From contig OZ024746.1 of NCBI GenBank assembly GCA_964016885.1, positions 34,348,001 to 34,412,000 on the forward strand: a stretch of 64,000 nt of DNA, given 5' to 3'. The notes under the pieces were generated by a model, which was not told where the DNA came from, ran no database searches, and worked only from the letters and a program-made list of their open reading frames with translations. Origin of the DNA: Eledone cirrhosa. Its lineage: Eukaryota. Below, in pieces: positions 9,295 to 58,324 of this stretch (positions are counted from its first letter, which is position 1; each line of letters begins with the position of its first letter). Both the position numbers and the translations under genes were made by a program.

Positions 9295-9496
9295 AATATA
9301 TATATATTTAAATATATATATATATAAATATATATATATATTGTTATACTTTGGGAGGGTCATGTTGCCAATAAGAAACACACGCACCAGTCGCTTTCAC
9401 TTCAATTTAATTTATTAAATATTTATAAATTTACAAATTTATAAATTTCTGGTTGGTTGGTTGGTTCCACAACCAGATAGTTGTTTATATATATAT

Positions 9497-9541
9497 AGTC
9501 ATAGTTCTTTCGTCACACACTCTGTGACCTCTTCAGTGACT
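9497..9541 (-). ncRNA. Minimal hammerhead ribozyme motif
   Basis: Reverse complement of 12554-12598. Confidence 0.6.
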
Positions 9542-9846
9542 GGGGATTTCTTTCTTCGTTTCTGTGCCTTTCCTTTCTTCTATCCTACGCCATTTTGTTT
9601 GTGTGTGGGTTGCGTGCTCAGTTTGCGCATGCGCCACATCCGGGTGTCTGTGTGTGTTTGTGTTCATTTTTCTATTTATCTATTTATATTTTTCTATTTG
9701 TTTGTTTATTTACTTATTTATTGTTGGTTGGTTGTTTGTTCTATGTGTGTGTGTGTTTTCATTTTGTCTTGTTTGTGTTTTCATTTTGTGTGTGTTTTCA
9801 ATTGTAAGTTGTTTGTTCTATGTGTGTGTGTGTTTTCATTTTGTCC

Positions 9847-12248: not shown

Positions 12249-12553
12249 GGACAAAATGAAAACACACACACACATAGAACAAACAACTTACAATTGAAAA
12301 CACACACAAAATGAAAACACACACAAGACAAAATGAAAACACACACACACATAGAACAAACAACCAACCAACAATAAATAAATAAATAAACAAACAAATA
12401 GAAAAATATAAATAGATAAATAGAAAAATGAACACAAACACACACAGACACCCGGATGTGGCGCATGCGCAAACTGAGCACGCAACCCACACACAAACAA
12501 AATGGCGTAGGATAGAAGAAAGGAAAGGCACAGAAACGAAGAAAGAAATCCCC

Positions 12554-12598
12554 AGTCACTGAAGAGGTCACAGAGTGTGTGACGAAAGAACTATGACT
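12554..12598 (+). ncRNA. Minimal hammerhead ribozyme motif
   Basis: AGTCA-CTGAAGA-GGTCAC(AGAGTGT)GTGAC-GAAA-GAAC-TA-TGACT; stems I and II pair; stem III is vestigial. Confidence 0.6.
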
Positions 12599-12811
12599 AT
12601 ATATATATAAACAACTATCTGGTTGTGGAACCAACCAACCAACCAGAAATTTATAAATTTGTAAATTTATAAATATTTAATAAATTAAATTGAAGTGAAA
12701 GCAACTGGTGCGTGTGTTTCTTATTGGCAACATGACCCTCCCAAAGTATAACAATATCGGTTTCAACACACGATTTCAGATAAAGAATCTTGCTAAACAA
12801 ATTCAGAAACG

Positions 12812-12933
<122 letters not shown>

Positions 12934-18200: not shown

Positions 18201-18880
18201 AACACCATATTTACAAGGAGGGGGCTAGCCCACTTTGCAGGATCTGTGGAAAGAGAGGAGACAGTGGCTCACATTGTATCCGAGTGTAAACACCTAGCCC
18301 AGACTCACTATAAAGGCTGGAGACATGATGTGATGGGCAGGGTGATCCACTGGCACCTATGCAAAGTAAACAATTTACCACATTCTGAGAAGTGGTATGA
18401 GCATAAGCCAGAGTCGGTGATAGAAATCGATCAGGTGAAGGTGCTGTGGGATTTTAAGATACAGACGGACAAGAAACTGGAACACAATAGACCTGACCTG
18501 GTGGTTTGTGACAAGGAAAAAGATCGTGCCTGATTGTGGATGTGGCCTGCCCATTCGACACGAGAGTGCAAGAGAAGCAGAGGGAGAAAATTAACCGATA
18601 CCAGGACTTAAAGTGGGAGGTAAAAAGGATTTGGAACTGCCATGAAGTCAAAGTGGTCCCGATTGTCATAGGCGCACTAGGTACTGTCTCAAAAGGTTTC
18701 CAGGGATGGTTAAAGAAAATTGGCCCCGCCACGATTTTTGGAACGTTCAAAAGGCATACTTGCTGGGAACAGGAAGAACCCTCCAATACGTCCTGAATAT
18801 CTGAGGCTGCAGGTAGTGGCTCGATATTCATTTCAACAAACTTTCCAATCAACTAACATCAATGACTGAAACTCAAAGAA
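15290..18880 (+). mobile_element. Near full-length degenerate R4/Dong-type non-LTR retrotransposon (family A)
   Basis: VMQCY..GYRKRM, EPWWKKRL, YRPITC, QKGCRKKSRGTKDQL, GIFQRDSLSPLLF, FMDDLKLF, ETVAHIVSEC, RHD, RPDLVV, DVACPFD, KINRYQDL; many frameshifts; ends in (TAA)n; 5' end approximate. Confidence 0.88.
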
Positions 18881-18881
18881 C

Positions 18882-18917
<36 letters not shown>

Positions 18918-18918
<1 letters not shown>

Positions 18919-20939
18919 TGTTCAAAAACAACCAAATAAATTTCTACAGAAAAATTGGTAAGTCAACAATAACTGCTAAATCAATACCACCCAAGGAGGA
19001 AGTGCAAGAATTCTGGGAAAAGATCTGGGCCGAAGAAAAAGTTCATAACATACATGCCCCATGGATAGACAGACAAATGAAAGATACAGCTCACCTTGAG
19101 GAACAAATATGGGAAAATATAACAGTTGAAAAGTTGCGCTTGGCTCTAAGAAAAACCAGCAAATGGAAATCCCCAGGAAAAGACAAAATACAAAACTTTT
19201 GGATAAATGCCTTCACAGAGTCTCATGAGCTGTTAGCCCAACTTTACAATGAAATAGTTAAGGAGCCAGAAAAGATAGCATCATGGCTAGTTAACGCCAT
19301 TACATTCCTGCTTCCGAAGAATGATGAGACAAACAATCCCAAAAATTACAGACCAATAACTTGCTTGACCACAATGTATAACATTTTAACATCAGTCCTA
19401 ACTGAATACACATATGACCACCTGATAACAAATGACCTATTTCCCATTGAGCAGAAAGGGTGTAAACGAGGCTCATATGGCTGTAAGGATCAGCTTCTGG
19501 TTAACAAAATGATACTGGAAGATTGTCATAATAGACACAAACATCTATCGATTGTTTGGATAGATTATAAAAAAGCATTCGATAGTTTGCCACACAGTTG
19601 GATTGAAAAATGTTTAGAGATTTTCAAAATATCCCCCGTTGTCAGGAGGTTTTTGTCATTCAGTATGAAGACATGGAAAACGACACTTCTTTTGAATAGT
19701 GAAACAAAATCACTGGAAGCTGGAGAAGTTAATATTAATTGTGGAATTTTTCTGGGTGACTCTTTATCACCGCTTTTATTCTGCATCGCACTTATACCAT
19801 TTAGTAAAATGCTCAATGAAACAAAACATGGATATAAAGTCTATGACAAAACCATTAATCACCTGTTCTACATGGATGACCTGAAACTATTTGCAAAAAA
19901 TGTTGAACAATTGCAAGGGCTATTATCCACTGTGGAGCAGTTCAGTGATGACATTAAAATGGAGTTTGGACTAGATAAATGCGCCAAAGCAACGTTTACC
20001 AGAGGAAAGCTGCTGAAAAGTTCAGACATTAATCTTGATCGGGGGAACGTGATAAGAGAACTTGATCAAGAAAAGACTTACAAATATCTAGGTGTTTGTG
20101 AAGGAGACGGAATCAAGCACTCGACAATGAGGGAAAGGATAAGGAAGGAATGTTACCGCAGAGTAAGAGCAATCTTAAGAACGGAATTGAATGCAAGGAA
20201 TAGGATCGATGCCATAAACACGCTTGTCATACCAGTAGTAACCTACAGTTACAATGTCATCAACTGGTCAAGCACAGAGATCCGTAGGCTCGATACAAAA
20301 ATTCGAAAATTCTTAACCATGCACAGAATGCATCACCCTAAAGCAGATATAGATAGAATATATCTCCCTAGGAAAGAAGGAGGACGTGGGTTAATCCAGT
20401 TAGACATTGCGTTGAAAACTGCAACAATTGGATTATCTACACATCTAAGGGAATCATATGATTGGATGATCAAACTCGTTTTGAAACACGAAAGCATCAA
20501 AAGATCATATTTCATTACAAAAGATGCACAAAGATACAGTAATGGACTACAAATTTCAGAAGTCCCGTTTACTGCTGAAATGGAAAACACAGAAAAAGCA
20601 AAGCAGGTAAAAGTAACTGCAAAGAAAGAACTGCTACAGAAACTGGCTAAGAAATGGCAAGAAAAGCCTCTGTATGGAAAATACCCAGAGCGAGCTAACA
20701 ATCCTGATGTTGACAAAACTTTAACCCATCAGTGGTTGGCATCCTCTGGACTGAAATCGGAGACTGAAGGACTGATTATATCAGCACAAGATCAGTGTCT
20801 GCCAACAAAAATTTACCAAGCCAACATAATATGGATGCAGCCCATTATGCCGTGTATGCAAAAAACAACCAGAGACATTTGGCCATATAATTTTAACGTG
20901 CAGTCCTATAGCTCCAACCGAATACCTAAACAGGCATGA
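18918..20939 (+). CDS. Reverse transcriptase of R4/Dong-type LINE (frameshifted near the C-terminus)
   Basis: KSPGKDKIQNFW, NYRPITCL, EQKGCKRGSYGCKDQL, WIDYKKAFDSLPHSWI, GDSLSPLLF, YMDDLKLF, YKYLG, RIYLPRKEGGRGL, SAQDQCL. Confidence 0.9.
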
Positions 20940-25944: not shown

Positions 25945-27584
25945 CCTTCTTTCTTCTTCAATGGCAATAATTACATACAAATTAGAGGCACAGCGATGGG
26001 AACGAAGTTTGCTCCCGTTTACGCGAACTCTGTAATGGGATACTTAGAAGAACAACTCTACCAAGAAATAGAGGAAACATATAGTACTGACTTTAGAAAG
26101 TACATTGAAAAATCTTGGAAGAGATACCTTGACGACTGTTTCATCACCTGGACAGAATCTCTAGATACTCTGGATGAGTTCAATATCCTCCTGAATAACC
26201 TACACCCATCTCTCCAATTCACAAAAGAGATGAGTAGGACCAAATTACCATTCCTAGATATAATGATAATCGAAAACGACACCACCATTACCACGGATAC
26301 ATATTATAAACACACAGACACCCATCAATATCTGAATTTTAAGTCGTGCCATCCACCTCATACAAAACGCAACATCCCATACTGCCTAGCCAGAAGAATT
26401 TGTACCATTGTAAAGATACGAATACCAGGTATAAACGCCTAACAGAACTAAGAGAATGTTTGCTCAAACAAAAATACCCATCCCTACTTATAGAAAATGG
26501 CATACAGCGGGCTATAAAAATACCTATACAACAACTTAGGACAACCCAAGGAAGAAGAAACCAAGAACTGGTCATACCATTTATAATGACACACAACCCA
26601 TGTCACCAGAATATCTTCAACACTGCCAAAGCAAACCTACCGATCATTGCTCAAAGTAATGAATTAAAAGGCTTAATCACAGATCGATCTTTGACTCTTA
26701 GTAAAAGACAGCCAAAAAATTTGAAGCAATTTCTAGCAAAAGCAAAGTTTGACCTTAACAACAAAGACCAATCATTCACTGTATCTAAATGCAATGATAG
26801 TCGATGCGGCACATGTAAATCCATACACGCCGGTCAATATATGAAAACAAAAACTGGAAAAATATTCCCAAATTCAAATATGAACTGCAATAAGCAGAAA
26901 TCTAATTTACTGCATTAAATGCCCGAATTGTGAAGAACTATATGTCGGTCAAACTGGAAATGCACTATCAGAACGTGCACGGGTACACCGTCAGAAAATC
27001 AGAGACCCAAATGTCCGTCAGATACCCCTAAGTAACCATCTAGCAACATGTGGTCAGGGAATATTTATAATATTCCAATTCTACACATTACACAGCCCAA
27101 GTGAAATCAAGAGAAACATCAAAGAAAAGAATGTTATTGATAAATTCAAACCCAAGCTAAATGAACAATAATAGTGCTTAGGGGTATTACTTCTACTATG
27201 ACTATGACTACGACCACTAACAACAACAACAATAACAATAATAAAAGTGATGTTGATGGTGATGATTATTAGAAAATATTATTTTCATCATTTCTTAAAA
27301 TAGCAAAACAATTGATGCTTTGGACAGGATCAATTAGTGGTCGTTAGTCATGCTCAACCAACCATGACGCCTAAACCAATCAGCTTTAGTAATTCAGTGA
27401 AACTACACACCGATTGGTCGAAATACAGTTTGCAAGATTTAGCATTCTGGAGCCACTTTTCACTGTATATAAGGTACACAATTTACCCATCTCATTACAG
27501 TTGAAAATTGCAAACATGACTGTCACCACACATTATGAACCTGAAGATTGCGAAAGCATGAAAGTATTGTACAAGTAACACTTA

Positions 27585-34874: not shown

Positions 34875-34957
34875 GGAGGTGAGTTTTATTGTAGTACAAT
34901 AAAGCAATGCAGATATCGGATAAGAAGCACTCTACAGTTTGTGGGACTGGAGTATGC

Positions 34958-35295
34958 ATAATATAAGATCAAAAGATGGTTAAAGGAGTTCCATATATTT
35001 TATTATGCGCATTTCAAAAACAAACATCATCATGCAATAATATTTGTGTTTTCATCAGTTAAAATAGGAGAACATGATATGAAGGCTAAAAAACACTTGT
35101 GGATAGTGCAGTTTTAAATCAACATATATGTTGATTTAAAACTGCACTATCCACAAGTGTTTTTTAGCCTTCATATCATGTTCTCCTGTTTTATCTGATG
35201 AAAACACAAATATTATTGCATGATGATGTTTGCTTTTGAAATGCGCATAATAAAATATATGGAACTCCTTTAACCATCTTTTGATCTTATATTAT
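34958..35295. mobile_element. 338-bp near-perfect palindrome carrying a hammerhead on each arm
   Basis: Symmetry axis at 35126/35127 with no spacer; only a few mismatches; adjacent to (TA)n. Confidence 0.9.
35191..35253 (+). ncRNA. Hammerhead ribozyme (mirror copy at 35000-35062 on minus)
   Basis: TTAT-CTGATGA-AAACACAAATATTATTGCATGATGATGTTTGCTTTT-GAAA-TGCGCA-TA-ATAA; palindromic stem III. Confidence 0.8.
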
Positions 35296-36351
35296 ATATA
35301 TATATATACAGTTTGTCCCCAAAAATGTTTACACTCTTTCGTTACCTGTTCAGGCAATAGTTATTAGAATGTTGTTTAAGTATGTATATATTGGGAGGGG
35401 GCACCCTGAATAGATTTAATAAACGCCAACAGAAGGTCGCACTGTAAAATATGCTTTGACATTTTAATTCCGTGAAATCACTAACGTATTTCGATGTCCC
35501 AGTTTCATCATACAAATATGACTCAGGACGATCTGATCAGGCAACCTCGACATAATTACATAACAGTGTTACTTTGAAGTCAAACATATCATGGACTATC
35601 TATAAAAATCGGGTGTATGTGTAAGGGACTACCTTCTCAGAGGTACCTCTAAACGAACTATATCGTAACGACTGTGATGAACTTTTTTTACAAGTAATTA
35701 CTTAAAGCAGTCTCAATCTTAAGAACGTTTGAGAGATTATCTGAAAATAAAATATTTCTAAAATCATCATTTCGCAAACGTTTACTTGATATATCTCACA
35801 GGCAAATTATTAAACAAACGGAAATCACCGATCAAATTTTTAATTCCATTATAACCCATAGGAAATGTTTATCATCTATTTTCACTTGCTGAGTTAATTT
35901 TGGAGTGGACTTTATAGTTATTTATTTTTTATACAGTTTTCTTTTCGTAGAGAAAATATGAAAAATGCTTTGTTAGGTATGTTATTTTTTTTTTTTCGTT
36001 TCTGCCGGCAATATTGAATTGTTTGCTTCCATCTTAGCTCTGATTTTTGAGATAGATGATCAAATATGTGTTCCTCCGGTCCATATTTGTCATAGTAAGT
36101 TTTTGTTTTCTAATTTATGTCAGTGAAATGTGGCAGTCGCAAAAGCATTTGCAGTCCTTCCGAGAGCGTATAAATGAACACTGTTACCATTTGTCAAGGA
36201 CAAATTCATGCAATTTGTAATGAAATTCACAGAGAAATAGGTATGTGATAAAGAAAGATGTAACTGCTGAGACAAGCAAGTCGGGCGATTACGTATGTCG
36301 TCAAATTTTGTCCATAAATATGTTCATGGTCAACGTAATCAAAATGTTGGC

Positions 36352-36539: not shown

Positions 36540-36730
36540 GGGCGGTGGATTGGCAGTATCGGTAGAGGGCGGACGCCATGCTTTGACGCATAGAGATACG
36601 TCCCTTGCCAATCTGAGTTCAAATCCACCAAGGTTAAATTTGCCTTTCATCCTTACGGGGTCGATAAAATAAAGTACCAGTAATGCACTGGGTAATTGCT
36701 GGCCTTGTTCCTAAAGTAGAAACAATTATT
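36540..36730 (+). mobile_element. tRNA-derived SINE, copy 4
   Basis: Matches the SINE consensus; ATTATTT(T)ACTATTC on both flanks. Confidence 0.9.
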
Positions 36731-36917
36731 TACTATTCTGTTTTGTTTTGATACAGCGTGTTTGCGCATGCCATCACTTAGATTTGGGAATATGTTGAAG
36801 GAAGCATAGCATTATTTTTGGTCTGCAGAGATATTTCGTAATTCGAGCACAATTAGCCGACTGACGTTTCGCTACGGAACATAATTTGTGTTCTAAACAT
36901 TTTATGCTATATATATA

Positions 36918-37741
36918 TTAGAATTGGTGCTCTGAAATAGCGATATATATATGAAAGTATATATAGTGTATTTTGCAATACACTGTATGCTTAATTAAAA
37001 GCATTTCAAGACCTTACGCTATTGTTTTTGAGTAGTGACAGTCTCACTTACTTTAAATGTTCAGCAAACAGGGGAGATAAAGCTGGCAGTGCTCAGTTTC
37101 GTACTGATTGGTACATATCAAAGCCAAGTACTCCACCTGTTTGCTGAAAATCATGAATGTTTGATTCTTATAGAATTCTAGTAATAATCAGGAACTGATT
37201 ATATAGAGCCAGTCAGGCAGAAATTGAAAATAATAATTGGTGCTCTGAAATAGCGACATATATATGAATGTATATATAGTGTATTTTGCAATTTAAAGTA
37301 AATTTAAAGTAAGTGAGACGGTCACTACTCTAAAACAATAGCGTAACGTCTTCGAAATGCGTTTAATTAAGCATACAGTGTATTGCAAAATACATTATAT
37401 ATACATTCATATATATATATATCGCTATTTCAGAGCACCAATTCTAATTTTCAATTTTTGCCTGACTGGCAATCGCTCTGTATAATCAGTTCCTGATTAT
37501 TTTTAGAATTCTATAAGAATCAAACATTCATGATTTTCAGCAAACAGGTGGAATACTTGGCTTTGATAAGTACCAAACAGTACGAAACAGAGCTCTGTCA
37601 GCTTTATTTGCCCTGTTTGCTGAACATTTAAAGTAAGTGAGACTGTCACTACTCTAAAACAATAGCGTAAGGTTTTCGAAATGCTTTTAATTAAGCATAC
37701 AGTGTATTGCAAAATACACTGTATATACATTCATATATATA
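36918..37741. mobile_element. Retrozyme-like ~313-324-bp HHR repeat unit in an inverted tandem arrangement
   Basis: About 1.2 units at 36918-37292 (period 313: 36922/37235) and about 1.35 inverted units at 37302-37741 (period 324: 37302/37626); one HHR per unit; many hairpins; (TA)n at both outer ends. Confidence 0.8.
37559..37603 (+). ncRNA. Hammerhead ribozyme, U3-A8 variant core (more decayed copy at 37081-37125 on minus)
   Basis: GGCT-TTGATAA-GTAC(CAAACA)GTAC-GAAA-CAGAGCTCTG-TC-AGCT; 10-nt palindromic stem III; GUC cleavage triplet. Confidence 0.75.
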
Positions 37742-37745
37742 TATA

Positions 37746-38142
37746 TTGTTATACTTTGGGAGGGTCATGTTGCCAATAAGAAACACACGCACCAGTAGCT
37801 TTCACTTCAATTTATTATAATAAATTTATAAATTTAGGAATTTATAAATTTTCAGTTGGTTGGTTGGTTCCACAACCAGATGGTTGTTTATATATTGTCA
37901 ACGTTCTTTCATCACACATTCTGTGACCTCTTCAGTGACTGGGGAATATTTTCTTTGTTTTTGTGCCCCTCCTTTGTTCTGTCCTACGCCATCTTGTTTC
38001 TGTGTGTGTGTTGTGACACGACACACACACAGAAACTGGTGCGTTTCTCGTTGGCAACATGACCCTCCCAAAGTATAAGAATATCGGTTTCAACACACGT
38101 TTTCAGATAAAGAATCTTGCTAAACAAATTCAGAAAGGAAAT
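37746..38142. mobile_element. Non-autonomous ~400-bp derivative of the 9341-12815 PLE
   Basis: Left terminus and HHR (37897-37940, minus), then inverted terminus 38035-38081 and the 60-bp tail; in (TA)n. Confidence 0.88.
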
Positions 38143-38620: not shown

Positions 38621-38810
38621 TGGATGGATTGTCAGTATCGGTAGAGAGTCGGACTCCATGCTTTGACGCATAGAGTTACGGCCCTTGCCATTCTGAGTTA
38701 AAAACCCCCCGAGGATATCTTTGCCTTTCATCCTTACGGGGTCGATAAAATAAAGTACCAGTAACGCTCTGGGTAATTGCTGGCCTTGTGCCTAAAGTAA
38801 AAACAATTAC
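38621..38810 (+). mobile_element. tRNA-derived SINE, copy 5
   Basis: SINE consensus; TSD ATTAYTTCTCAGAT. Confidence 0.85.
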
Positions 38811-38834
38811 TTCTCAGATATTATCATTCTCATG

Positions 38835-39366
38835 TTGGTGGAAGTACACACTGAGCGGACGAAGTTAATGAAATCCAGTATTTATCAATATCATTATTTT
38901 CCGGCAGAATAATAAGAGTGCCGGAGAAAATGCTTCGTGGCATTTATTTAGAATCTGTACATCTTCAGCTCTAATCCTGCCGATGCTTGCTTTGACTTTC
39001 ATCAATTGGGCGTCAATAAAATATAATCGTTTCTACTTTTGGCACAAGGCCAACAAATACCCAGTACATTACTGGTACTTTATTTTATCGACCCCATAAG
39101 GATGAAAGACAAAGTTAACCTCGACGGGATTTGAACTCAGAATAAAATATAATACTAAGCAGGTACTACGGGCGATGTAATGTCTTTTCCCATCCCAAGA
39201 AATGGTTGGCCTTGTGCCTGTATGAGAAAATATTATTTTCTTGCCATTCTGAGTTCAAATCCCGCCGACGTTAACTTTGCCTTTCATCCTTACGGGGTCG
39301 ATACAATAAAGTACCAGTAATACACTGGGTATTTGCTGGCCTTGTGCCTAACGTAGAAACAAGTAT
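38835..39366. mobile_element. Nested SINE cluster: an older SINE plus two 5'-truncated young copies
   Basis: Young partial copies at 39027-39143 (-) and 39241-39366 (+), within or next to a diverged related SINE. Confidence 0.7.
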
Positions 39367-39445
39367 TTTCTGATTCGTGAATTATCTTCTCCTCCACCGC
39401 TTCTTCTTCTTTCTCCATATCCTCCCTCCCCATATCCCTGCTCAT

Positions 39446-50736: not shown

Positions 50737-53700
50737 TTTCTTTATTAGCCACAACGGCACAAAAGAAGGGGACAAATACAAATGGGGAGTTACATATAGG
50801 TATATGAAAATAAAACTATTAATAAAATAACAATTAACAATTGAAATCCCTAATAGAGGGAAGGCGTTACACAGGGGTTGTCCACACCCCGAAAAAATGT
50901 ACAACCCTCATCTCCAGGAGCACCAATAGTGAGTACTCCCTTCCTCACTTTCTCTTTTTCCTCAACCTACAGGCTTATATGGAGAGAAGGCCCAACCACT
51001 TGGGCCATCATTGCCACATTCACCCACCTTTTATAAAATTTGCTGGTGTACAGCACCTCTCTCTCCATCCTGATTCTTCTCCCAAAATGATATTAGAAAG
51101 AACGAATCAGTTGCTCGCCGGAGAGAAAGGTGTCTGACCTCAGGCTTTTTAACCTCGATCACCATATAACCTCTTTCACCATAGCCATAACACATAGGAA
51201 AACCACCTCTCCCTCATTTTTGAATGAGGGTGGCGATTCGATCATGACAATGGGTCGGTGGTCCTACCCGCGACAATAGTCGTTCTACATAGCCCCACAG
51301 GTCGGTAATGCCCGAGCAGTGTACAAATGCGTGCGCGACGAGGAAACTGGACATATCTTTTTCGAAGGGTCTCTACCCGGGCGTCCGTGTCTGTAGAGCT
51401 TGTCTCTAACTGGTAGAGCTCCACGATAGCACTGTCAGCGACAAGAGGCATGGGAAGGCTCGCCTCACGAACGGTGCCCAAACCGGTTGTCTGGTGAGAT
51501 ATAAGTGAAGGTGCCGCAGACTGAGCGCCTGTTTGCGCTTCGTAAGCCACAGCATCCCCAGCCCTCCGTTTGAAGGGGTTGGCAGCAGAAGTATCTTCTC
51601 ACCAAAGGAGCCGGTTTCTTGCAAAGGAATTGGAAGAGCGCGCGCTCCATTTTGGTTGGCTGGACAAGGCACGACGGTCAAGCGGTAGTAGGTGACGAAC
51701 GCTATAAATGTGTTCGCCACCTCCGCTCGACCTTTCAAGGATAGTTTGCATTCGGCCCACTTCTGGGTGAGCGCAAACACCTTGGCCGTCACCTCGTTCC
51801 AGTTCTTCTCCACCTGGAGGTCCGGACTGAACTAGACCCCGAGCAGCTTTACCTGTCCTTCCGCCCAGCGTCCGACGACGCCATCGGAAGGCATCGGTTT
51901 GCCTCTCCACGTTCCGAGTTACAAACCGATGGATCTGTCCCGGTTCAGATTCGCTCCTGTGAACCTTTCGTATTCCTCCATTAAGGTGCCGACCTCCCCG
52001 ATATGCGATGTGCTCGACACCATTACTGCAACGTCGTCGGCGTAGGCCGACGCCGCTTTTCGCAGTCCCGGTTCCAAAAGAATGCCCTGCAATAGCTCTA
52101 ACTTCCGCAGGAGTGGCTCAAGAGTCAGTACGTACAGAAGAGAGGAGAGAGGGCATCCCTGTCGGATGGATCGCGTGATATGGAACGGCTCCGAGAGGTA
52201 GCCGTTCACCTTGACCCTTGAGCAGATGTTGCTGCTGTGCATTGCAGCAATCCAGCCCCTGAACGCGGGTCCAGCGCCTGCCACATCGAGCACCGCATCC
52301 AGGTAACAATGGTCAACCCTCTCGATGGCCTTAGACTGATCCAAGTTGATCAGGGCCCCTCCGAAGCCAGGTTTGCACCCAACCCTCTCTATGATGTATC
52401 ACAGGAGGTGGAGGTTGTCGTGTATGAACCTGGTCGAGATTGCGCACGTCTGCGCTTCTCCCACCACGTTTTCGACGACAAGCGCCAGCCTCTTTTCCAA
52501 CACATTGGCCAAAATCTGTAACTTTGTGTTGCGCAGAGTTATGGGCCGGAAGTTGCCTATGTCATCCCCTTTATTCTCGTCCTTCCTGACTAGCGTGACT
52601 ACGCCCTTGGTCACAAAACTGGGAATTCTCCCGTTCTGCTGCCAGTTGCAGTAGACCGTTTCCAGGAGGTCGGAGAACAAGTAAAATTCGTAGGGTAGAC
52701 AGTCGAGACCTGGAGATTTGCGTTTGTCGTATAGGCACAGCGCGTCCCTTATCTCAGCTGCCGAAATCGGCCTTTCGCAGAACTTTGCCGGGCTATCCGA
52801 GAGTCGCGGTAGGCCACCGAGTTATGGACCGAAATCCATAGCCCCTCCCGGCGTACCGCCCTGATTGAACAGTTGAGCAAAGTGCCGCTGAAAGACCGTG
52901 CACATCTGCTCGGCTCACGTATCACGCGTCCGTCTTGGTCCTTCAAAGACCGAATTGTGGACTTGTTTTCACTTTTCGCCTCCGTCACTCGGGCCCACCT
53001 AACAGCTTTGGCTCCCTCGTTTCGCAGAGCACGTATTTTGCTTCATACATCGCAGCCTTCATCCTTTGCGTTGAAGAGCTGGTCCAAGGCCGTTCTTGTC
53101 TCTAGCACGCTGGCTACGTTGCCACTCCTAAGTGCCTCTTCTACTTTATCTACCAGTTGCTTTTCGGTCTTATTTATAAAACACTAATTCTTTACTAAAA
53201 CCTATCGAGTCTAATCTAACTGCCCTCTTGAGAGAGTACCACTATCTGTTGTTGACAATGGCCCCCGTAAAGTGCTGCTTAACTAAAGTGTTAATCCGTC
53301 TACTGTAGGCTTTGCATGTCGGTAACGACAAGTTCAGCTTCTAGTAGCCGGGTCACAGCCTATGGGTTTTATCAAGGTTGACTAACCAGGTCACTAATTT
53401 GCGATCTGAATAGGCAACCATGAACATTTGTGGACAGCTTAATTAGAACCCTATCTAGGTACGATCCAATTGTTCCGCTATGATTAGTCCACGTCCACAG
53501 TGGCACAGTCGGAAAATCTAGTCGATATCTATCGGCCAGGTCAAATCGGCCGATTAACTGTTTGAGGCTGTTACACCCCCCTCTATCGGGACACGCTCCC
53601 ACATAGTCCCAACATGCATCTAGGATTCCATTCCAGTCCCCCACTAACAGCAGGGAACGGGACGTTTCCAGAAAAGTCTCTAGACGTTTGAAGAAGTCTG

Positions 53701-54620
53701 GCCGCGGTGTCCCGGAAGGGGCATATTCGGCCACCAGCCTGAAGGCTCCACCTTCACTACCTTCAACGTCTAGGACCACCAGTCGACTCTCCGGGTCCAG
53801 ATATACCGTCTGTGTTACGCGGTCCAGGTGTTTCCCCAGCAAAACGGCAACCTCACCCCCACCTCCCGGCTGACAGAGAGATGCGTAGATCTCAAAGTCG
53901 TCGATGATGGGAACCAGTTGTTGCTCGCTGTGGATCCTGGACTCGCAATTGGATACTACATCCATACTGTGCGACCTGAGGTCGTTTTAGAGTTTGCCCT
54001 GTTTCCAGGGCATCCCCAGGCCGCGTACATTCACACATCCAACTCTTATATTGGCCATGTTGGGGCTGAAAAGTTAAAAGAAGAAGAAAAGAAATCACTC
54101 ACCTCTTCGTCTCCTGGGGACCAGGCTGCACAATTTCCATGCGGGTGTTGGATGGGTTGTTTGGTGGGGTCGTGGTCTCTGTCGGGGTGGGGACGGAGAT
54201 GTTTGGTGGGGAGGGGGTGACTTGTGGGGTGGGGATATCTGGGGTGGGAGTGACTGGGATGGGGGTGGGGAAACATTTCAAAAGGACGCGGTTATAATGT
54301 TTGACGCAGGGGTTACCTACGTCGTTAGGAAATTTTTCTTTTAACTTTATGTGTGTCCATGGAGATCCTAATCATTTTAAGATTAGAATCCTCCGAAGAG
54401 TGTGTACAAGTTTTCCCTTCGGAGGAGACCGAAGGGTTTTTATATATGGTGTTTGTCAAAGTTTTATTGTTAGTATTTATGTAGGTGTAACATTTTTGTT
54501 GCGTTGTGTTCCTTTTTTTCTGTGGTTCTTGTGTGTTTACGTTTTGTAGTAGGTGTTTTGTTTTCATGAGGGGGTGTTTTTGTTTGTGTTGTTTGCGTCA
54601 CTTGTGTTGGTGTTTGTGCG
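50737..54620 (-). mobile_element. Degenerate L1/Tx1-type LINE (APE endonuclease and RT)
   Basis: LLLVGDWNGILD, SYLDRVL (APE); NFRPITLRN, DQSKAIERVDH, RQGCPLSSLLYVL, AYADDV (RT); LSLKGRAEVAN, GGLGM; frameshifted; 5' end approximate. Confidence 0.9.
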
Positions 54621-57555: not shown

Positions 57556-58324
57556 AGTGTGTGTGTGTGTAATAGTGTGTGTTTGTGACTTTGTGTGTGT
57601 TTTTGCCTTTGTGTTCGTTGGGTGCTTGTTCTTGTGCATGTGTGTGTGTGGGGGTATGTAGGTATCGAATGATATACGATATGATAGCATAAAAAACATT
57701 TGAAAGCTGTTAGTATGAATTTTAAATGTGGTGACTGACGCCAACCACATTGTTCAAGCCGAATCCATGGGGAAGAAACCCCAAAGAACAGCTGTATCTG
57801 GCTGTTTGGACATTGTCAATGTTATGCATCCCTTCCTTGCCTCAATTAAGCTTAAACCATATAGACTTTACTCTTAAGTATATATGGACCTATTTACATA
57901 CGGAGCTTTAGGTTGGGTTGTCCTGAACGTGAAATAGCATTGCAATGTTCGTTCCAGCATAGCTGTGTACATGCATATATGTAAAGTTTGTAAATCTAAT
58001 AATATAGTATATGTTTACATATATAATTACCGTATATTATCATCAGACCCAATGATGTAGGCGAAACTTCAGAGTAACAAGATTCACTATTTAGCCTTAC
58101 TACAATGATTAGCTATATCTGTATGAGAAGGAAGTCTGTTTGCTTTAGGTTGAGGTTAATAACACTAAATATAATTGATAATAATTAAGTTTGTTCGTGT
58201 GTTTTCAACTAATCTAAACTCAATCAAGCTCGCTGTCGAATTATTTTCCGGAAACAGAACGGGATGGCGAGTTGATGGGGATTTACTGCTCTTTCTACCA
58301 CCCAGGTACTGTCTGTCCCTTCGT

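Follow-up and report, generated by a model that had tools for sequence, protein, structure and literature searches.

The DNA analysed here, referred to below as the window, is a stretch of 64,000 nucleotides from Eledone cirrhosa (G000:C6:34348001-34412000 of the 3.0-Gb assembly). Between positions 36917 and 37746 it carries a single insertion of a non-coding unit of about 320 nt, in which a minus and a plus arm stand back to back with both 3' ends outward. We read this locus as one insertion of a dispersed clan of non-coding repeats, a retrozyme without long terminal repeats (non-LTR retrozyme), whose RNA is predicted to cleave itself at a type I hammerhead ribozyme (HHR) and which is probably copied in trans into (AT)n tracts by a Neptune-type Penelope-like element (PLE). 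A first-pass annotation of the window had proposed a non-LTR retrozyme mobilised by a PLE, and this remained the best reading after genome-wide tests, which turned out in its favour. The clan has the marks of a retrozyme, i.e., a tandem unit within 150-450 bp, one type I HHR per unit, many copies, no coding sequence and a GC content below 50%; an LTR-internal-LTR arrangement was absent from the element layouts examined.

The locus and its two arms

The true ends of the insertion are the tail of the minus arm (36917) and the (AT)n of the plus arm (37746), and its parts are listed in Table 1. As first described, partial tandems of a non-coding unit of 313-324 bp follow each other in minus and then plus sense, with a period of 313 nt in the minus arm and 324 nt in the plus arm. 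No open reading frame (ORF) of at least 120 aa overlaps the locus, and the GC content is 0.36 (2-kb bin). The two arms are 94% complementary across 202 nt. The plus HHR is complete, with stem I, TTGATAA, a 4-bp stem II, GAAA at 37584, a palindromic stem III and GTC^AG. All of the motifs reported earlier lie where they had been placed: the core at 37563, stem II, GAAA, the GTC^AGCT site at 37599/37600, the stem III palindrome CAGAGCTCTG at 37588-37597 and the outer stem around the HHR. The second copy, in the minus arm, does keep T3/A8 as had been reported, but its HHR is broken by a change of A9 to T, two changes in stem III and a change of U16.1 to C. Since three minority variants are common to both arms, the arms would descend from one template, and T3/A8 in both of them is therefore inheritance and no evidence of covariation from the locus alone. 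Thus, the argument for selection on U3-A8 did not hold for the two arms, while the comparison of subfamilies supplied evidence for it. We regard the window copy as a slightly decayed member of a clan whose individual copies decay neutrally.

Copy number and subfamilies

A DNA search of the genome with the unit gave 2,587 first-look candidates, and the best 40, which were scored, matched over their full length at 94-96%, the window itself not counted. The pattern YTGANRA-GTAC-N6-GTAC-GAAA had 1,415 exact matches in the genome (control 1); among the 100 matches listed, T was first in all and A8 was present in 99. For a 24-nt tail pattern, 7,116 exact matches were obtained and none in the control. 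Tandem arms were found as well, and the existence of copies throughout the genome was in this way borne out.

Subfamilies were found stepwise through diverged neighbours, so that their number, at least seven, is a lower bound. Subfamilies A (to which the window locus belongs), A3, C, D and F have U3-A8; B and E have C3-G8. The six clustered subfamilies are 11-30% apart, and additional variants were present among 25 loci chosen by the tail alone (30 fetched, five overlapping ones dropped). Divergence from the column majority was 3.3% in A, 2.5% in B and 0.3% in D, and copies of A, B, E and F are 5.5-8% apart within their clusters. In D, the best 40 full matches scored, spread over four chromosomes, did not differ at any of 171 nt; arms of this subfamily reach 5.2 units, and nine of 36 hold at least two. 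Subfamily D is near-identical and looks active. An old, source-like array of about 14 units of subfamily A lies at C1:93.46 Mb. HHRs of at least four more families, whose stems differ and whose cores are C3-G8, were seen in the flanks of L014, L036, L003, L055, L076 and L117, and we consider the genome rich in HHR elements.

The hammerhead core and its 3-8 pair

The plus copy is an intact type I hammerhead by sequence, YUGANRA ... GAAA ... UH with a Watson-Crick 3-8 pair. A scan of the window at Rfam gathering thresholds gave no family; Hammerhead_HH9 (RF02275) scored 20.1 bits against the HHR domain (E 0.059), below its cut-off of 52. Covariation of positions 3 and 8 across the genome, suggested as a check in the first pass, was followed in 318 HHR domains from non-overlapping loci. 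The pair was U-A in 250 of these, C-G in 56, U-G in four and other in eight, i.e., U-A or C-G in 306. These loci were picked by similarity or pattern, and the values should not be taken as genome frequencies, nor the copies as independent events. Sorted by cluster, U-A was found in 101/106 domains of A, 13/13 of A3, 50/50 of D and 13/14 of F, and C-G in 28/29 of B and 14/15 of E. Core positions 4, 5, 6, 9, 12-15.1 and 16.1 were kept in 305-316 of the 318 domains. Eight core positions were invariant in representatives of seven subfamilies, against 72 variable columns out of 98 in the HHR domain.

In a tree of 20 copies built from columns outside the HHR (one short C copy was omitted), B, E and F were grouped at 100% and E with F at 94%. 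Subfamily F, with U3-A8, sits inside the C3-G8 group, which implies at least two coupled 3-8 changes, unless F gained its HHR by recombination. The 3-8 pair would thus have switched at least twice on this tree without a mismatched subfamily, and we take U3-A8 to be the working core of the clan, interchangeable with C3-G8.

RNA structure

The plus unit of the window folded at -87.5 kcal/mol (z -5.9), and none of 100 shuffles was as good. Circular folds gave z of -4.5 to -5.8 for sense units (30 shuffles each) and -1.9 to -6.9 for antisense; folding z-scores, not being strand-specific, were set aside as evidence of function. RNAalifold on 21 copies predicted 44 pairs, 16 of them changed on both sides, and recovered stems II and III, the outer stem and three hairpins. 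The named structure comprises 70 pairs; 94.4% of the cells pair, and 19 pairs were changed on both sides (stem II 4/4, stem I 2/4, stem III 1/3, outer stem 5/11), compared with 12.4 +/- 1.7 in shuffles and 3-6 in slid controls. These controls are generous, given that subfamily A served as the model for the structure and that the copies share ancestry. Stem II and the outer stem appear to be the strong part of this covariation support. Together, the covarying pairs support the type I layout of a three-way junction, in which stem I is open while stems II and III are closed. With the core nearly invariant and all four pairs of stem II covarying, the expected retention of core and stems across copies could be confirmed. 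In the 318 domains, each of the five commonest stem III forms is a palindrome whose halves are separated by at most 1 nt; this favours pairing as a swapped dimer.

The first-pass description of the accessory hairpins fared less well. The perfect 12-bp hairpin with a GCAA loop is present in the window, but one of its pairs is due to a change private to this copy. As general features of the clan, the GNRA loop fails in subfamilies B, E and F, where GCCA or similar is found, and the TTGCC/GGCAA stem in subfamily D, where it is not kept.

Insertion anatomy and the template

Anatomy was recorded in 157 clusters from 158 loci, one edge locus having been dropped. The arms were minus-then-plus in 102 clusters, of a single orientation in 51 and complex in four, while none was only plus-then-minus. 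The clan tail is about 25 nt long (22-33 nt) and stood at one end in 81 of the 102 divergent clusters, at both ends in one and at neither in 20. Ends with a tail lay beside (AT)4 or more in 94 of 102 cases, compared with 813 of 7,900 random places in the flanks; ends without a tail lay at the AT run of the unit and continued into (AT)6 or more in 109 of 134. Target-site duplications are unreadable inside (AT)n. The 3' ends were fixed, the 5' ends random, and the copies dispersed over many chromosomes. The layout is like that described for insertions of Neptune and Naiad PLEs, which form partial tandems, hold an inverted copy with a truncated 5' end, have their tail on one side only and target (TA)n (Craig et al., 2021, PMC8557442), and we regard the insertions of the clan as carrying PLE-type anatomy.

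Opposite arms of the same locus were closely alike. Diagnostic mismatches between them were 12/202 in A, against 43% between loci, and 0/55 in D, against 25%; B was less clear with 18/63, against 44%. The cleavage site is contained in 222 of 288 arms, and in 43 of the arms at least twice; the 5' ends within 6 nt of the site (8/288) were about as many as an even spread would give. Among all 5' ends, the 54 at positions 1-19 include masking artefacts. A cut linear monomer would halt the cDNA at the cleavage site; the arms read through it, which points to a circle or an uncut multimer as template.

Six sequencing runs of unrecorded kind were available as contigs only. Run X1 had a single 347-nt contig, equal to the D unit plus 30 nt (L150:1400-1780), as a closed loop or a tandem would assemble; as the library type is unrecorded and the depth 2.7, we treat it as a lead and not as evidence. 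The same run had no cover on the neighbouring repeat resembling a short interspersed element (SINE), which is covered in X2, X4 and X6. Runs X3 and X4 held 1,325 and 113,703 variant contigs, as expected of genomic DNA. Reads joining at GTC^AGCT, which the first-pass annotation had recommended as a check, would not show a circle, because religation of a unit cut from a tandem would restore the genomic sequence.

The Penelope-like partner

A genome search with PF01541 gave 10,596 first-look GIY-YIG candidates, the best 150 of which were scored; 49 loci and one window copy were compared. These 50 PLE loci fell into seven groups. One of them, L121, has an ORF of 938 aa with reverse transcriptase (RT) and GIY-YIG between two pseudo-LTRs (pLTRs) bearing HHRs. 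The Neptune-type families N1-N3 have U3-A8 in their pLTR HHRs (24 and 15 motif matches), and N4 has C3-G8. Copies 99.6-100% alike are contained in N1, N3 and N4, and Neptune-type PLEs have evidently been active recently. Family N1, with 1,567 first-look candidates, has the end TTCTAAT(AT)n in common with the clan, a weak link. The window itself carries a decayed Neptune-type PLE of family N4 at 25949-27584 (+), 94% to L124; its GIY-YIG lies at 26902-27162 and its pLTR HHR at 27541.

Three places where clan and PLE sequences meet were considered. In L012/L137 (G000:C1:173.727-173.734 Mb) a mixed-haplotype A dimer is joined to an N1 PLE arm without (AT)n, with a young D element alongside. The composite has one tail overall and parts of similar age, and it fits a single event with template switches from the A dimer to N1 RNA; being a single case (n = 1), it was rejected as proof of the partner. 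In L257:1498-2130 an A arm is joined to a young N4 pLTR end through a 3-nt microhomology; two tails and unequal ages (about 3% vs under 1%) make two events likelier than a one-event chimera. L076 was rejected as a chimera because (AT)n separates its parts.

Proposed mechanism and alternative explanations

We propose the following course of events. A tandem copy would be transcribed, and its HHRs, probably as swapped dimers formed through the palindromic stem III, would cut the transcript to unit length, whereupon a host ligase would circularise it, as reported for the retrozymes of coral, mussel and axolotl. The GIY-YIG endonuclease of a PLE would nick an (AT)n tract, and both strands would prime cDNA on one template, at the tail and at the internal (AU)n. 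The RT would pass the cleavage site and in many cases copy beyond one unit, as a circle would allow, and finally the two 5'-truncated cDNAs would be joined back to back. As to the template, the sequences incline us slightly towards a circle over an uncut multimer. A bolder version is that D is a living viroid-like RNA circle of 317 nt with a U3-A8 HHR, copied repeatedly by Neptune RT from both nicked (AT)n strands; this is tentative, and we give it somewhat less than an even chance. If true, D insertions would be the first anatomical record linking animal retrozymes to PLE machinery, and the D circle a minimal substrate for the study of PLE integration.

Several observations weigh against the proposed course. 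Firstly, mismatches within the same arm reach 21% in A and 21-32% in A and B, above the prediction for a single monomer circle; the value in A comes partly from the old array of about 14 units and from the tandem in L012, which itself combines two haplotypes. Secondly, in all four units folded the best fold is 2-7 kcal/mol more stable than the active HHR fold, the antisense folds about as well as the sense in three of four units, stem I was not recovered by RNAalifold on 21 copies, and dimers of Xenopus retrozymes were reported as uncleaved in vitro in eight of nine cases (bioRxiv 10.64898/2026.07.22.740005). Thirdly, no pLTR homologous to the unit was found by blastn or nhmmer in the 50 PLE loci, out of 10,596 candidates, and homology thus points neither to descent from a pLTR nor to any one family as the partner.

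A first alternative keeps the element and the PLE partner and takes an uncut linear multimer as the template; the HHR would merely trim or release the transcript, a role that has been put forward for PLE pLTRs, and circles would be absent or by-products. Reading through the cleavage site fits this equally well, and so do long source-like arrays such as the one at C1:93.46 Mb, the mixed tandem in L012, an active HHR fold that is not the best predicted one, and the weak cleavage in vitro described for PLE HHRs (PMC4209133). However, random 5' truncation would shorten the arrays in each round, yet D, the youngest subfamily, has the longest arms; moreover, D arms are uniform within a locus (0/111 mismatches), and related retrozymes are reported to form circles (PMC7229834). 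We find this alternative possible, if rather doubtful.

A further alternative is that the unit is an internally deleted, non-autonomous pLTR copy of an unsampled PLE family, with PLE partial tandems as its tandems and an inherited HHR. It would account for anatomy and target as in PLEs and for U3-A8 in three Neptune pLTRs, and 24 of 57 retrozyme families in Xenopus are reported to match known elements, mostly PLE ends (bioRxiv 10.64898/2026.07.22.740005). Against it, there is no homology to the five sampled Neptune families, and stems I and III are long in the clan HHR, while pLTR HHRs are compact. Upstream of the tail in the 25 tail-picked loci, the nhmmer matches are clan sequence, and direct contact between the 3' end of a PLE and a free 5' end of the clan, with no (AT)n in between, was seen in one of 93 cases. 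An origin of this kind is in our view unlikely. As for a satellite or a foldback element that multiplied as DNA, with a decayed relic as HHR and U3-A8 by drift, the broken minus HHR in the window, the 5.5-8% distance between copies within clusters A, B, E and F and the array of about 14 units could be cited for it, but the fixed 3' and random 5' ends on many chromosomes, the coupled 3-8 changes with covarying stems and the near-identical D copies with intact core make it highly improbable.

Relation to known systems

Non-LTR retrozymes of metazoans, with their RNA circles in coral, mussel and axolotl, and the hypothesis of PLE mobilisation were presented by Cervera and de la Pena (2020, PMC7229834). 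The clan is like the retrozymes described there in its non-coding, AT-rich tandem unit of 150-450 nt with one type I HHR and a palindromic stem III, in its thousands of copies and in the PLEs of the same genome. It is unlike them in the U3-A8 core of most subfamilies and in insertions whose arms stand back to back and mostly hold one or two units, with the tail on one side and (AT)n as the target; the words 'inverted', 'tail' and 'microsatellite' do not occur in the main text of that paper. RNA circles were shown for the coral, mussel and axolotl retrozymes, whereas the clan is known here from genomic sequence. The vertebrate retrozymes reported by Li, Clavereau and Pollet (2026, bioRxiv 10.64898/2026.07.22.740005) as non-autonomous derivatives of PLEs also co-occur with Neptune PLEs, form monomer, dimer and multimer copies and have a similar unit length. 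They were tied to PLEs by pLTR homology, while the clan is tied by insertion anatomy, with no pLTR homology found; the main text of that report mentions no molluscs. From the Neptune and Naiad PLEs as described in PMC8557442, the clan differs by having no RT or GIY-YIG ORF, a tail of 22-33 nt instead of 30-40, and a canonical HHR where theirs is minimal.

Natural U3-A8 hammerheads have been reported as active in vitro (Perreault et al., 2011, PMC3088659; PMC4209133), and the minimal HHR of the Cercyon PLE in Schistosoma mansoni has U3-A8, with about 1,300 matches in that species (PMC4209133). Unlike the U3-A8 cases described in these two papers, the U3-A8 pair of the clan belongs to a tandem retrozyme with a type I HHR of full size, where it can be tracked on the tree switching to and from C3-G8. 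A comparable footprint study concerns the satellite HHRs of cave crickets (PMC2837043).

The clan was not found described in the open literature on cephalopod hammerheads, retrozymes, Penelope, U3-A8 and Neptune non-autonomous elements; subscription journals and repeat databases lay outside this scope, and the clan may be listed already among unclassified repeats. Taken one by one, the retrozyme class, the U3-A8 core pair and the insertion anatomy of PLEs have been published before. What we consider new is that a full-size retrozyme HHR has a U3-A8 core which switched repeatedly, that the insertions of a retrozyme show PLE anatomy, and that one subfamily is young. PLE mobilisation of animal retrozymes has so far rested on co-occurrence and pLTR homology in the accounts cited above (PMC7229834, bioRxiv 10.64898/2026.07.22.740005); here the insertions themselves bear the PLE signature. 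A young, near-identical subfamily beside recently active Neptune ORFs makes the circle as template, the origin of PLE tails and inversions and the role of the HHR testable, and the clan offers a natural experiment on the 3-8 core pair.

Features of the window

Table 1. Parts of the retrozyme insertion, with positions counted in the window.
Feature	Position	Strand	Basis or remark
(AT)n target remnant, left end	36908..36918	.	sequence; tails abut (AT)n elsewhere in the clan
Tail of 26 nt (positions 1-26 of the unit), forming the outer 3' end of the minus arm	36917..36942	-	at left end only
Minus arm: 35-nt unit fragment, one unit (313-nt period) and tail, 3' end leftward	36917..37292	-	19/309 positions off subfamily A column majority
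Decayed HHR domain of minus arm; core TTGATAT at 37121-37115	37060..37148	-	stem III and U16.1 altered
Junction between the two 5'-truncated arms, short duplicated stretch	37293..37300	.	sequence, arm limits
Plus arm: 122-nt 3' fragment and full 324-nt unit (37423-37746), ending in the unit's (AT)n without tail	37301..37746	+	full unit 13/309 off column majority
Type I HHR domain within extended stem I; outer arms 37536-37548 and 37612-37624	37536..37624	+	covariation; weak Rfam HH9 match
Core positions 3-9, TTGATAA, with U3-A8 pair	37563..37569	+	3-8 pair U-A or C-G in 306/318 HHR domains
Stem II, 4 bp, 6-nt loop	37570..37583	+	4/4 pairs change on both sides
GAAA, palindromic stem III (12-nt palindrome 37587-37598) and C17	37584..37599	+	predicted cleavage 37599/37600, established HHR numbering
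Three accessory hairpins, 37632-37653, 37681-37698 and 37697-37724	37632..37724	+	RNAalifold, 21 copies; each with at least one pair changed on both sides
Internal (AT)n where tail-less arms end	37733..37746	.	border common to neighbouring HHR element

A second, unrelated element bearing an HHR adjoins the plus arm at the common AT run (37749-38141; also 9344-9546 and 12549-12813). Its arms likewise stand back to back, its tail of about 60 nt is found on one side, and its C3-G8 core, on the minus strand near 37929-37939, is decayed in the window copy. The same element was found in 17 of 206 clan loci. At 34953-35300, beside (AT)n, lies a perfect foldback with 174-nt arms at 97% and no spacer; this repeat was present in about ten fetched loci, several of which were likewise foldbacks, and it is possibly a further back-to-back insertion of PLE type. 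An old and highly diverged relative of the clan, its core unrecognisable, was detected at 57672-57870 (-) (nhmmer E 1.4e-6). Copies of the very abundant SINE-like repeat, a putative octopus SINE, lie at 36545-36735, 38625-38812, 39015-39143 and 39240-39368. The window also contains a LINE-type RT ORF of 689 aa at 18870-20939 (+) and, at 51919-53986 (-), a broken element with pieces of RT and AP endonuclease.
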